From positions 1 through 30,918 of the IMG/VR virus record IMGVR_UViG_3300016476_001350: a DNA stretch of 30,918 bases. One strand, 5' to 3'. A program made the position numbers and the translations under genes. The DNA is from a virus (lineage: Duplodnaviria > Caudoviricetes). Numbering within the stretch: the stretch's first letter is position 1; each line of letters opens with the position of its first letter. This document shows positions 23,532 through 27,791 of the stretch, piece after piece. The notes below the pieces were generated by a model, which saw only the letters and a program-made list of their open reading frames with translations, was not told where the DNA came from and searched no databases.

Positions 23532-24365
23532 ATGTCAGCGTTAACAAAACACTTTAGACAACCAAAATTGTTTATTCAGCTACCAAGCAATGGAAAATGG
23601 TGGCCTGCAGGATCAATAAATTTGCCAGACAATAAAGAAATGCCCGTATTAAGTATGACAGGAAAAGACGACTTATTACTTAAAAATGCTGATGCGTTAA
23701 TGAACGGCAGTGCTACTGTTGATATGATTCAAAGTTGTTGCCCAAATATAAAAAATGCATGGGACATTCCTAGACCAGACTTAGATTACATTTTATTAGC
23801 AATAAGAATAGCAACGTATGGCCCAAACTTAAAATTAGAAAGCAAGTGTCCACATTGCAATTCCGTAAATGATAATGAAATTGATTGTCGTTGGATTATG
23901 GAAAATATACAGCAACCTGATTGGGAAAAGATGGCTACTATCAATGATCTTTCTTTTGAGTTAAGACCACTTAATTTTAAACAGATTAACTCATTTAATA
24001 TAGATAGTTACGAAGAAAATCGAATGATCCAACAACTATCGCAAGAGAATCTTACAACTGAGAAACGATCAGAAATAATATCCAACACAATGAGGAAAAT
24101 TGCAAAAAATGTTAATGAACGTTTAGCTCATAGTATTGCAGCAATTATTACTCCTGAATATGAAAAAGTATCAAATCATCTTGAGATTGCTGCGTTTATA
24201 ACGCAAGCAGATAAAGAAATGTTTGACAAGATTAAAAATATGATTAATGACTACGTATCAAGTTATAAATTACCAAAGTTAAATGCACAGTGCGAAAGTT
24301 GCTCAAAAACATACGAAACCTCAATTGATTTTGATCCTTCAAATTTTTTCGCACCAGGCTATTGA
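23532..24365 (+). CDS. gp26: Baseplate hub/tail assembly protein (T4 gp26-like)
   Basis: FRQPKLFIQLPS.G, DLDYILLAIRIATYG, two CxxC motifs (CPHC, CESC), and a C-terminus ..NFF. AAGGA RBS. Confidence 0.75.
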   Translation: MSALTKHFRQPKLFIQLPSNGKWWPAGSINLPDNKEMPVLSMTGKDDLLLKNADALMNGSATVDMIQSCCPNIKNAWDIPRPDLDYILLAIRIATYGPNLKLESKCPHCNSVNDNEIDCRWIMENIQQPDWEKMATINDLSFELRPLNFKQINSFNIDSYEENRMIQQLSQENLTTEKRSEIISNTMRKIAKNVNERLAHSIAAIITPEYEKVSNHLEIAAFITQADKEMFDKIKNMINDYVSSYKLPKLNAQCESCSKTYETSIDFDPSNFFAPGY

Positions 24366-24580
24366 CATTAGATAACGATCAGGTAATAAAATATCTTGAT
24401 GGTCTGGATAAAGAATCGTTATCACTCAAAGAAGATTTATTAAAAATGTGTTGGTATATGCGCGGTGGTTTATCTTATGATGATGCATTCTTACTTGATT
24501 ATCAAGAAAGAGAGTTGATATCTAATCTAATTAAAGAAAATATGGAAACAACCAAAAAGTCAGGATTGCCATTCTTCTAA
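24362..24580 (+). CDS. gp51-like baseplate assembly chaperone; possibly expressed as a -1 frameshift extension of the upstream gene
   Basis: WYMRGGLSYDDAFLL..QERELI resembles the gp51-type/GT-type helical extension. Only a TTG start, with no visible SD. Frame is open from 24335. Confidence 0.6.
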   Translation: MTLDNDQVIKYLDGLDKESLSLKEDLLKMCWYMRGGLSYDDAFLLDYQERELISNLIKENMETTKKSGLPFF

Positions 24581-25572
24581 TGTACAATATACATTGTCAA
24601 TGGCATCCACTCAAGAAGTGTATTGTTGGTAGAACTTATTATTCAAATTTCTTTGCCGATATTCCTGCTGCGGATGCACTAGCTAAAGTATGTGAAGAAA
24701 CAGAAGAAGATTTACAAAATCTCGTTGGCATCTTGCATCACTTTAACGTTGAAGTTATTCGCCCAAATTTAGATATCAATGATAAATTTATCAATTACGT
24801 CAATGTACCAAGACCTCCAATTGCACCTAGAGATTCACTGATAGTAATTGATAACAAAATTTATGAATTTGGGTTAGATCATCCAAGCATTAAAAAATGT
24901 ATTAATGACGACGTTAAATCATGTCCTTTTACTAGACATAGAAAAACAACTTTTAATCTAGCAACACCGTCCATAACTCAATTAGGAAAAGATATTTTGA
25001 TTGATACAAAATGTTTTACTAGTTGGGAAATACAATGGTTACAAAAACAATTACCAACACACAGAATAAACACGATATCAATTGGCGGTCACAATGACGG
25101 TAGTTTTATAATTTTAAAACCAGGTGTAATACTAAGTTTATCAAAGACAGTTGATTGGAAAACATTTTTCTCAAATTGGGATGTTATGGAAATTGATAGC
25201 GATGAAAATGAGTGGTTTACCGAGAGAAAAACTAATCAAGCTACGTGGTGGATACCTGGACAAGAAAATAACAACGCCCTAAAAGATTTTGTAAACAAGT
25301 GGTTAAATGATTGGGTAGGAAATATATCAGAAACAGTATTCAGTATCAATGCATTAATCATAGATGAAAAACATGTTGTTATCAATACACCAAGACAAGA
25401 TGTCATAAATTTTTTAAAGAAACACGATATAGAAGCAATTGTATGTCCTCAGAGACATCAATACTTTTGGGATAACGGAATACATTGCATGACACTTGAT
25501 TTATATCGAGAAGGAGAATTATTTGATCTTTTTCCAACTCGTGAAACACCATTTATGTGTAATAGATATTAA
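24580..25572 (+). CDS. Amidinotransferase-family (pentein) enzyme
   Basis: W.PLKKCIVGR, ETEEDL..L, PRD, GHNDG and C-terminal GIHCMTLD retain the Asp/His/Cys catalytic pattern of glycine/inosamine amidinotransferases. TAATG overlap with the upstream ORF. Confidence 0.8.
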   Translation: MYNIHCQWHPLKKCIVGRTYYSNFFADIPAADALAKVCEETEEDLQNLVGILHHFNVEVIRPNLDINDKFINYVNVPRPPIAPRDSLIVIDNKIYEFGLDHPSIKKCINDDVKSCPFTRHRKTTFNLATPSITQLGKDILIDTKCFTSWEIQWLQKQLPTHRINTISIGGHNDGSFIILKPGVILSLSKTVDWKTFFSNWDVMEIDSDENEWFTERKTNQATWWIPGQENNNALKDFVNKWLNDWVGNISETVFSINALIIDEKHVVINTPRQDVINFLKKHDIEAIVCPQRHQYFWDNGIHCMTLDLYREGELFDLFPTRETPFMCNRY

Positions 25573-25577
25573 TACTA

Positions 25578-25650
25578 TATTGTTGAGATGTACTACGTAC
25601 ATCTGTTCTGCGTGTTTACTTCGTAAACACTTGAACATTTTCTCATCAAT
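25578..25650. other. Branched inverted-repeat element with two triloop hairpins
   Basis: AGATGTAC-TAC-GTACATCT (25586-25604) and GTGTTTAC-TTC-GTAAACAC (25612-25630), the latter extended by TGTTC/GAACA. Confidence 0.7.
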
Positions 25651-25679
25651 TAATTTATAAACACAGTAAAAACAGTACT

Positions 25680-26170
25680 TCTATACGACTTAACCGCTTA
25701 AGCGACTTAAAGTATTCATCTAGATATGATGTCATACTTTTCCTGGAAACAGGAAAAGTATAGGAGGTCTTCATCTGAGTACTCCGACATACTGTGTTAC
25801 AGGAGATTTACAATGTTTATTGTAGCGGAGGCGGTCACCCGGTACCCCCTACTCCAGCTTTATGTGACGGAACTTCAACACGCCTTAACAAGCAAACGTG
25901 TATCTTAGTTGCGGTTGTATCTTTTTCACAGAGCCGCGATCATTTAGCCTAAAGTTAGAAGAACGCTTTGCGCTCTTCGTTAGCCTTACTGTGCCCAGCG
26001 TGACAATATCGGGGTGTCACCAACCTTCACGTAGTTCGGATGAAGGGCTATATAGCCTAATTTTAGCCTAAATGTGTGCTGTATCGAGTGAGAATTTATT
26101 GAGCCAGGGTCTTAATTTGTGAGCTATTGAGATGCCATAATGCAGTGTGTAACATACGTGTTATAAACAT
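25680..26170 (-). ncRNA. Candidate large structured non-coding RNA of unrecognised family; boundaries approximate
   Basis: No credible ORF, GC-richer than flanks, and at least seven stems. Several mismatches become G-U pairs on the minus strand. Directly downstream of the GIY-YIG gene. Confidence 0.5.
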
Positions 26171-27238
26171 TTATGTCAATTTTTTCTTACAGTTGTCAAA
26201 GTGATAGCGCAACATATTTCCTCTTCCGCCAGTTTTTTTGCAATGAGGACAAGTAACAGTTGACATTTTTTTGCCTTTGGCTGATTGAGACATGCGCTTT
26301 CGAGTCTCCTCAGATCGTTTAAGTCCTCGAACAGAATCTCCGACATTTTTCTTCCACTGTTCTTTTTCTTCTTCAGTCATGTTATAATGACATGGTTTGC
26401 CGTACATAGCATTATCTTTACCAACTCTTTTTCCTTTGTTGGCTTTTGATATTTTTTCACGTACTTCTTTTGGCCTAGGTTTACCATATCCAGGATGATC
26501 TTCGCCACTATAATGAAACGCTTCTGATAGTTTTTTCTTAATTAACGCGGCTTTCTCAAGCCCATATACTTCCTCAAAAGTCTTGCCTTTATTAAATGGT
26601 TCAACACCGTGCATTGGGTTGTTTTCTCCTACAAAATGGTCAGCTATCCATTGCTCATATTCTTTAGGAGTTTTGCACTTATTTTTCCATTGGTTTTTTT
26701 GGAGATTGTTTTCTAGCCAATCATTGAGTTCGTGACTTGATAGTTTGTGCATCCAATGTGTTTTTCCATCAGCGTACATTTCAAGCATCTTTTTTTGTAT
26801 GCGTAATCGGGTTTCTTCACTGTGTTCAGCAGGCGGAAGAAACTTAACGCTGTTAATTGCTTTGTTAAAATATTTTCGCTGGCCAGACGGAAGCAAAGTT
26901 CTAAGAACGTCTTCAGTAATCTGACGTTGCACTTCAGCGTAATGCAACGATCCTTTTGATTTGTGGAGAGTCAATATTTCAAACTTATAGTTTGCTTTGC
27001 CTTTCACAGCAATAGCTTCGTTTAATTCAGTTGAAGATCCAGTGTATTCACGCCAGTCAGATTCAGACCGAACATGCTTTTTATTTTTTCGATTTTTAAT
27101 TACTTTACGGCGAAGTTTTGTAAATTGCTTCTTGCCGATATACTCTCGCCCAGAATCTAACTCTGTAATGCGATATATAAATCCATACCATTCAGCAGGA
27201 TTAAATTCGTTTTGATATTCCCAATGACCAAGGTCCAT
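26171..27238 (-). CDS. GIY-YIG endonuclease with NUMOD3 repeats and C-terminal zinc-finger-like motif (Seg-like)
   Basis: GFIY..(10)..YIG, WREYTGSS, F.FEIL. NUMOD3-like HSEETRLRI, RPKEVREKISKANKGK, RSEETRKRMSQSAKGK. CPHC...HFDNC at the C-terminus. Confidence 0.85.
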   Translation of the reverse strand: MDLGHWEYQNEFNPAEWYGFIYRITELDSGREYIGKKQFTKLRRKVIKNRKNKKHVRSESDWREYTGSSTELNEAIAVKGKANYKFEILTLHKSKGSLHYAEVQRQITEDVLRTLLPSGQRKYFNKAINSVKFLPPAEHSEETRLRIQKKMLEMYADGKTHWMHKLSSHELNDWLENNLQKNQWKNKCKTPKEYEQWIADHFVGENNPMHGVEPFNKGKTFEEVYGLEKAALIKKKLSEAFHYSGEDHPGYGKPRPKEVREKISKANKGKRVGKDNAMYGKPCHYNMTEEEKEQWKKNVGDSVRGLKRSEETRKRMSQSAKGKKMSTVTCPHCKKTGGRGNMLRYHFDNCKKKLT

Positions 27239-27599: not shown

Positions 27600-27791
27600 T
27601 TATTCCTTCTTTGCGCTAAGAGCATTCTTAGCTTCTGTAATTTCCTTGCGACGTGTAGCAGCAAGCTTGCGGATCTCGTTTAGTGCCTTACGGGCACGAC
27701 CGGCAGCAGCTTTTACACCTTTTTCAGAGAACTTTGCATTCTCTTCTACATATACATTTAGCTGATTTAATAATTCGTTATGCGTATTCAT
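27600..27791 (-). CDS. Histone H1-like (Hc1-family) small basic protein
   Basis: EKGVKAAAGRARKAL.EI.KL...RRKEI matches the Hc1 N-terminal G.KAA..RARK motif. Confidence 0.7.
   Translation of the reverse strand: MNTHNELLNQLNVYVEENAKFSEKGVKAAAGRARKALNEIRKLAATRRKEITEAKNALSAKKE

Follow-up and report, generated by a model that had tools for sequence, protein, structure and literature searches.

An ORF-free gap in a fragment of phage DNA carries a real and, as judged by sequence comparison, conserved non-coding RNA of approximately 360 letters with two pseudoknots, whose conserved part runs from 26076 to 25715 on the minus strand. The RNA family is real and uncatalogued, and on comparative evidence it most likely represents a new form of RNA-primed origin: we assign a probability of roughly 0.55 to the reading that the element is a phage replication origin of the ColE1/T4 kind, with the RNA as primer precursor. 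Comparison of related elements established the fold, its minus-strand orientation, the identity of two repeats (R1 and R2) within each copy, a motif in the downstream tail, the synteny and the copy pattern.

Genomic setting and distribution of the element

The window, i.e. the whole stretch of 30,918 nt that was analysed, represents part of the genome of a large T4-like phage and encodes portal, major capsid protein, gp46-like ATPase and baseplate hub. Its major capsid protein shares 62-68% identity with those of Rak2-like jumbo phages, e.g. PA5oct, GAP32 and Phosso. The gap (25573-26170) is bounded by two converging units: a SegE-type GIY-YIG gene read on the minus strand and an operon on the plus strand. 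It is the longest gap between main genes, in agreement with a first-pass annotation, made from the letters of the window, that had described it as the only long non-coding stretch. The span proposed there for the RNA (25711-26170) encloses the conserved part but includes approximately 95 unconserved nt (26170-26077) and misses the hairpins at 25636-25586; conservation sets in near 26076. As that annotation had also remarked, no strong terminator separates nuclease and element (terminator scan, 0 hits). A promoter candidate at the nuclease stop codon is weak when taken alone (11 sites vs 6.4 in shuffles). The features of the locus are listed below.

26171..27238, minus strand: SegE-type GIY-YIG nuclease of 355 aa with a NUMOD3-type C-terminal tail (Pfam PF19835, E 3e-33; NUMOD3, E 6e-5)
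26151..26179, minus strand: sigma70-like promoter candidate, TTGACA-17-TATGTT, overlying the nuclease stop codon (match 10/12)
25993..26076, minus strand: RNA 5' domain from the alignment, with closing helix 26048-26045/25996-25993 and helix 26020-26015/26005-26000 around a conserved loop
25911..25937, minus strand: H1, 25937-25934/25914-25911, with an inner 2-bp stem and an A-rich loop; preceded by a conserved AAAUG
25878..25901, minus strand: H2 hairpin, whose loop 25890-25886 pairs with 25799-25795 (pseudoknot B)
25802..25868, minus strand: conserved core, with pseudoknot A (25868-25864/25838-25834), H3 (25855-25852/25805-25802), H4 (25849-25845/25831-25827) and segment X (25862-25858)
25770..25780, minus strand: R1, fixed ACTC followed by a variable 7-mer (AGATGAA in the window); predicted cis guide
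25734..25761, minus strand: H6 hairpin between R1 and R2, with both-side changes at 7/11 pairs
25715..25725, minus strand: R2, fixed ATCT followed by the same 7-mer; predicted DNA target
25640..25712, minus strand: A/T-rich tract, predicted unwinding region (70% A+T, mild against the window average of about 64%)
25586..25636, minus strand: two hairpins (25630-25612 and 25604-25586) with C-GAA-G and C-GTA-G loops; predicted single-stranded DNA signals

About 370 stretches in IMG/VR match a 16-base pattern from the core; 119 of them were retrieved, and three further patterns added 28, 18 and 29 loci; the family was found in many large lake phages. It faces a convergent baseplate-hub pair, its constant neighbour, in 74 of 93 loci, while gp46 lies upstream in 53 of 94. 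Because the place facing the baseplate-hub genes is kept in these 74 loci, the element appears to hold a fixed genomic position and does not look mobile.

The initial description as a large unrecognised RNA holds. Rfam 15 gave no match at the gathering threshold in the window or in six related loci (best E 1.6 in permissive mode), ARAGORN found no tRNA or tmRNA gene in the window, and blastn of the window element and of a relative (L057) against GenBank phages found none. In bacterial contigs, a loose pattern gave 120 loci, of which the 80 tested were matched only partially by the model, showing no bacterial copy. Literature searches gave no description of the element, and the accessible sections of the CBB genome paper make no mention of it. 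In the supplement of Fremin et al. (PMC10690425), the core motif is absent from six files; pieces of the element may still be among the candidates of that study. A group I intron was considered and rejected: Rfam gave no intron match, the adjacent gene converges on the element, no coding sequence is split, and only one subfamily shows a resemblance at the 5' end.

A covarying fold with two pseudoknots on the minus strand

Covariation, proposed in the first-pass annotation as a check on its candidate, was found in a 46-sequence alignment, with both-side changes at 21 of 32 named pairs, in helices and in the two pseudoknots. The 32 pairs were formed in 90.7% of cells, compared to 78.4% in shuffled and 41-53% in slid controls; the helices had first been read from the same sequences, which favours them over the slid control. 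In an unbiased mutual-information scan, the highest-ranking pairs came from H1, H3 and H6. The four core and two inner pairs of H1 were formed in 46/46 sequences, and individual pairs had as many as 28 both-side changes; the core helices were paired in 96-97% of cells, each helix with both-side changes. Pseudoknot A joins 25868-25864 to the loop of H4, which has invariant bases. For pseudoknot B, the mean duplex was 7.4 nt, compared to 5.2 nt with swapped partners (maximum 5.7, 300 swaps). The 5' domain shows 10 distinct compensated stem variants.

All stems named at first reading are present in the window sequence, and relatives uphold several of them: the 12-bp stem at 25734-25761, which is H6, by covariation; ACACGUUU/AGGCGUGU, which is H2; GTGACA/TGTCAC, with 10 distinct stem variants; and, by eye, GCCC/GGGC. 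The small hairpin TACAAT/ATTGTA occupies a conserved place, but its sequence is variable. Three others fell away. The 5' partner of CCUUCAU/GUGAAGG is unconserved in the alignment, a local, covarying GGGGG/CCUCC helix takes the place of the long-range GUAGGGGGU/ACCUCCUAU, and GAAGAGCGC/GCGUUCUUC is an insertion unique to the window (1/19 aligned sequences). The hairpin insertion at 25978-25958 (minus strand), present in the window alone of these 19, has duplicated CTAAC flanks.

The orientation had been left uncertain, with G-U pairs gained on the minus strand and a GAAA loop favouring the plus strand. Read on the minus strand, the alignment contains 86 G-U versus 22 A-C cells, which bears out the first indication. 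The second does not stand as a plus-strand signal: the H6 loop (25745-25750) reads GAAA on the plus strand in the window but on the minus strand in its closest relatives, L294 and L305. The loop therefore looks inverted in the window genome, which suggests loop flipping in a perfect palindrome. Folding energy compared with shuffles was modest for the whole 481-nt stretch (z -1.2 minus, -1.8 plus) and stronger for the conserved 365 nt (z -3.2 minus, -2.0 plus).

R1 and R2 carry the same variable 7-mer in almost every element

With anchors picked without regard to identity (8 of 146 elements lacked an anchor and were dropped), the R1 7-mer equalled the R2 7-mer in 132 of 138 elements, which carry 19 different 7-mers; shuffles gave a mean of 15.6 and a maximum of 29, and the elements are related, so that the matches are not independent events. 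Five of the six mismatches were mis-anchored and matched under another anchoring. The same match is seen by eye in distant subfamilies. Identity stops at the next base (0.21 vs 0.26 expected), and the two repeats lie about 55 bp apart (mostly 52-57 bp). Within 450 nt there is neither a third copy of the 7-mer nor a complement at a consistent place. An intron-type guide with an internal complement was rejected on this ground, and a target-site duplication because its halves would not keep changing in parallel. Identical repeats without a complement in the RNA are as expected if R1 pairs with the opposite DNA strand. A variable guide-like segment, for which the first-pass annotation had suggested looking, was thus found in the form of the 7-mer; its match lies approximately 55 bp downstream in the same locus.

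Segment X (5 nt) follows the H6 3' arm and not the complement of the 5' arm at 23 of 28 wobble positions (23 vs 4; a weak test, as few clades and some wrong hairpin calls enter this count). A column-based version of the test gave 29, 9 and 5, values distorted by misaligned rows.

Metatranscriptome contigs from seven RNA runs cover relatives of the nuclease gene and element of one locus (L070) and fade at R2. We rejected them as proof of transcription or of an RNA 3' end; the fading reflects strain divergence, because the probable DNA run shows the same fading and a contig of RNA origin continues with unlike letters.

Strand-specific hairpins downstream of R2

A GA-xy-GN(N)A-yx-GA mini-hairpin occurs within 170 nt after R2 in 110 of 139 elements on the sense strand, compared to 9 on the antisense strand and 0.85 in shuffled sequence. 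For C-GN(N)A-G hairpins in relatives, the corresponding numbers were 86 sense and 3 antisense, of 139. The tail loops comprise 22 triloops, 44 GNRA and 45 GNYA loops and lack the GNRA purine preference of RNA. Being triloops or GNNA loops without purine bias, the hairpins fit DNA rather than RNA; GNA mini-hairpins are stable in DNA. The GA-flanked motif recurs in the ColE1 record, at 1332 and on the strand of RNA II.

Copies in complete genomes and cultured relatives

Three copies, all on one strand, were located in the complete genome G003 (93, 218 and 311 kb); a nuclease gene accompanies one of them and is missing beside the other two. The R1/R2 match of the extra copies is only 6/7 and about 5/7, and two copies sit among co-directional genes. 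Two further complete genomes of about 340 kb (G001 and G002) have one copy each. In G003 (L399-L415), approximately 450 extra non-coding, hairpin-rich nt separate nuclease and element (92856-93308).

At the syntenic locus, GAP32, PA5oct and Phosso have gaps of 660-1015 bp. The GAP32 gap sequence recurs in 72 phage records at 285 places, with 4-5 per record among the 45 records listed. GAP32 has five copies on one strand, 53-84 kb apart, and copy spacing is even both in GAP32 (P 0.0014) and in G003 (P 0.017). By eye, the 3' half of the GAP32 copies follows the same part order: a hairpin engaged in loop-loop pairing, a CCGUU segment that covaries with a CAACC loop, the first repeat, a G-rich hairpin, the second repeat, the A/T tract and GNA hairpins, with a GNA hairpin approximately 90-110 nt after R2 in 5/5 copies. 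In 19/19 cultured-phage copies, at least 6 nt are common to both repeats, which are spaced 49 to 87 bp apart. Phage Munch has CGTCAG in both repeats of one copy and CGTCAA in both repeats of three, and all 19 cultured copies agree at that base. The only match of the model in GAP32 lies inside one of the five copies and covers the core; it is partial and, at 22.5 bits, near noise (biased negatives reached 18.5-21.9 bits, and P-SSM7 gave a match of E 0.009). As the homology rests on synteny, feature order and this one match, we consider the multi-copy element of cultured Rak2-like phages a probable distant relative of the lake RNA.

The gaps of PA5oct and Phosso gave no model match and no clear repeat pair, and that of Phosso is single-copy by blastn. 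The 1-kb Phosso gap (L423:24760-26160) is followed by an RNase HI gene, and GNA-type hairpins read on the minus strand. In PA5oct, ncRNA004 (L453:831-1449) is a paralogue of the syntenic gap (126 nt at 82.5% and 32 nt at 100%); it starts after a sigma70-like promoter and ends approximately 50 nt before a shared downstream motif. It was annotated from RNA-seq and accounts for 0.02-0.08% of phage reads (Lood et al., parts of PMC7318152). Several short hypothetical ORFs are annotated in the PA5oct syntenic gap.

A putative RNA-primed origin

Under the origin reading, transcription by read-through from the nuclease gene or from a local promoter would allow the core to fold. The exposed R1 7-mer, perhaps aided by segment X, would pair with the template strand at R2 behind RNA polymerase and so form an R-loop. 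Cutting by RNase H or another activity would leave a 3' end from which the leading strand is extended into the A/T tract, and the displaced sense strand would fold into GNA-loop hairpins loading helicase or primase. The GIY-YIG gene may be a passenger or an optional accessory at the locus.

Several observations argue for this reading. R1 equals R2 in 132/138 elements across 19 7-mers, without a complement in the RNA, and in Munch both repeats change at once, copy by copy. The tail hairpins are strand-specific and of DNA type, with the same motif downstream of the ColE1 origin. Several evenly spaced same-strand copies are present in G003 and GAP32; three T4 origins lie near transcription strand switches, and the element faces convergent genes in 74/93 loci; and the RNase HI gene of Phosso adjoins the syntenic gap. 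Among the features of RNA-primed origins, a structured RNA upstream of an A/T tract appears to be present, and a single-stranded DNA loading signal is present by motif only. An R-loop-forming origin transcript had been the second option offered at first reading, and the repeat identity, tail hairpins and copy pattern speak for it.

Counted against an origin are the single copies in G001 and G002, the weaker R1/R2 match of the extra copies in G003, and RNase HI: tblastn with the Phosso protein as the one query found nothing significant in G001-G003. Strand skew gives the origin reading no support, since four-fold-site skew has no replication component in G001, G002 and GAP32 and a negative one in G003. 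Raw skew tracks gene direction, and the raw GC-skew minimum is near a copy only in G003 (91,460 vs 93,467). Moreover, a 7-bp R1-R2 hybrid is weak without help.

Alternatively, the element may be a free-standing large RNA with another job, such as scaffold or regulator of transcription or packaging, R1 and R2 being RNA elements for one protein or for alternative folds. Its elaborate conserved fold with invariant bases, the RNA-seq annotation of the PA5oct paralogue ncRNA004 and the single repeat sequence common to all five GAP32 copies are in keeping with such a role. We nevertheless regard it as unlikely, given that it leaves unexplained the strand-specific DNA-type hairpins outside the RNA, the even spacing and the per-copy repeat change in Munch, and that ncRNA004 contributes so small a share of reads.

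A bolder form of the origin reading, which we hold to be decidedly unlikely, is a self-targeting origin. Here the core would hold out two guides, X (5 nt) and R1 (7 nt), that read their own template strand, while the invariant bases of the core would themselves generate the priming end by cleaving RNA or DNA, so that no initiator protein would be needed. The element would then represent an ancient, reprogrammable and RNA-guided initiator that Rak2-like jumbo phages, those of lakes and those of E. coli alike, have in common, and the GIY-YIG protein would be an optional nicking partner.

R1 and R2 could also act as iterons, recognised in duplex form by a phage protein, in an origin or other DNA site for which the upstream RNA is only a regulator. 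Direct repeats some five helical turns apart (mostly 52-57 bp) around a hairpin would suit this, and T4 oriE has 12-nt iterons (in parts of PMC3016281). Such binding sites seem quite improbable to us, however, as 19 variants change in lock-step, close relatives included, repeats differ between copies of one genome, and the spacing in cultured phages varies from 49 to 87 bp.

The GIY-YIG nuclease is a frequent neighbour of the RNA

The preferred reading of the first-pass annotation was a nuclease-plus-RNA module by analogy with HEARO or omega RNA. Nuclease association was counted from 120 distinct RNA-pattern elements, nuclease-anchored and flankless loci being excluded; 17 of the 120 had too little flank. 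Among the remaining 103, a GIY-YIG stop lies less than 450 nt from the core in 65 and further away in 12, while 26 have none within 2.4-3 kb. Co-occurrence is hence frequent but not obligate. The closest relatives of the window RNA, L294 and L305, both belong to these 26, and searches with PF19835, run with a positive control, found no match in five fragments including the L294 and L305 contigs or in the complete genomes of GAP32 (with five probable copies), PA5oct and Phosso. Together with the two G003 copies that lack a nuclease, these counts go against the module as an obligate pair and indicate, at the level of sequence, that the nuclease is a frequent neighbour and not a required partner of the RNA.

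That RNA and nuclease form a ribonucleoprotein, with the RNA directing nicks to R2 or to another site, is accordingly very improbable, for all that 65/103 elements lie close to the gene. RNA at E 0.01 or better was found in 22 of 49 nuclease-anchored loci (some short or redundant), the Y, G, Y and E positions of catalytic type are 99-100% conserved among 102 homologues, and anchor plus 7-mer occurs once per genome in 3/3 genomes tested. In addition to the elements without nuclease, the reverse is seen in cyanophage and Felixouna-type phages, where the nuclease family is present and three tested gave no full-length model match; and at L002:1424-1719 (minus strand) a distant copy of the element lies on the opposite strand, upstream of the nuclease gene.

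A PDB search with the nuclease returned nothing significant. The NUMOD3-type tail (26171-26830) distinguishes the window nuclease from most nucleases beside the element, which are tail-less and approximately 142 aa long, and similar RNAs adjoin different nuclease types (L290 vs L005). PHROGs (phrog_447) and many GenBank records carry the name 'NAD synthetase' for this GIY-YIG family; as the Pfam match is GIY-YIG, this looks like a propagated mislabel.

Least credible is a role outside replication, as self-processing ribozyme or as transcription stop/attenuator at the convergent junction: unpaired bases that are invariant within the nested pseudoknots, the convergent position and the alternative pairing allowed by X and the H6 arms would fit it, but there is no U-tract terminator and no Rfam ribozyme or intron match, and two G003 copies sit among co-directional genes.

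Relation to known systems

ColE1 uses an RNA primer processed by RNase H, with a downstream primosome site on opened DNA (parts of PMC3167613 and PMC5043065). The element resembles ColE1/pMB1, with its RNA II primer precursor and downstream primosome assembly site (n'-pas/ssiA), in its folded non-coding transcript followed, 100-150 nt on, by a GA-flanked GNA mini-hairpin motif on the sense strand. It differs in having two pseudoknots and a variable 7-mer repeat, in showing no RNA I-type control, and in residing in up to five copies on phage genomes of 320-360 kb. A model of the element found no sequence or model match to RNA II in the ColE1 record (L416). ColE1 RNA II has a G-rich coupling tract.

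T4 has at least five origins, with R-loops at two and three near transcription strand switches (in parts of PMC3016281). With the T4 origins oriF and oriG (R-loop) and oriE (iterons), the element shares a T4-like phage as bearer, putative multiple origins, a predicted transcript primer, A/T-rich DNA downstream and a position near strand switches. A conserved fold and matched repeats set the element apart; according to the same source, no motif is common to the T4 origins, and R-loop formation there does not depend on a particular sequence. What triggers a persistent hybrid is described as speculative even for ColE1 (part of PMC5043065) and is open for T4 (part of PMC3016281).

Like HEARO and the omega RNAs of IscB/TnpB, the element is a structured RNA that can stand beside a nuclease gene and has a short variable guide-like segment. 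In HEARO and omega-RNA systems an HNH or RuvC nuclease is tied to the RNA, and the systems are mobile and occur in varying contexts. Here, the nuclease is of GIY-YIG type and often absent, the locus is fixed, the match lies in cis 55 bp away, and there is no Rfam match. GOLLD, ROOL, OLE and raiA are large, pseudoknotted and in part phage-borne, as is the element; Rfam gave no match to any of them at gathering score or at E below 1.6 in the window and related loci, and we know of no paired repeat or single-stranded DNA tail in these RNAs. The resemblance to PA5oct ncRNA004 lies in its paralogy to the syntenic gap, the promoter before and the shared motif after it; it differs in that the element model has no match in PA5oct, and the accessible part of its source gives no structure or function (PMC7318152).

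How jumbo phages start replication is little described, and we found no passage on replication origins in the accessible part of a 2026 review (PMC13282480). The 19 matched 7-mer pairs form a natural compensatory series and predict exact RNA-DNA base partners. With a probable homologue in cultured E. coli phages, the origin idea is testable now; a new pseudoknotted RNA family of such size is valuable whatever its function.

Other genes near the element

The 330-aa gene convergent on the element (24580-25572, plus strand) belongs to phrog_25854 (function unknown), has no Pfam match and occupies the same place in L305; its motifs recall, as we presume, an amidinotransferase. The 277-aa baseplate-hub gene overlaps a 72-aa ORF and has a TTTTTTC run close to its end (24343-24349, plus strand). 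Upstream of the nuclease, 27600-27791 (minus strand) encodes a 63-aa histone H1-like Hc1 protein (PF07432, E 9e-12).
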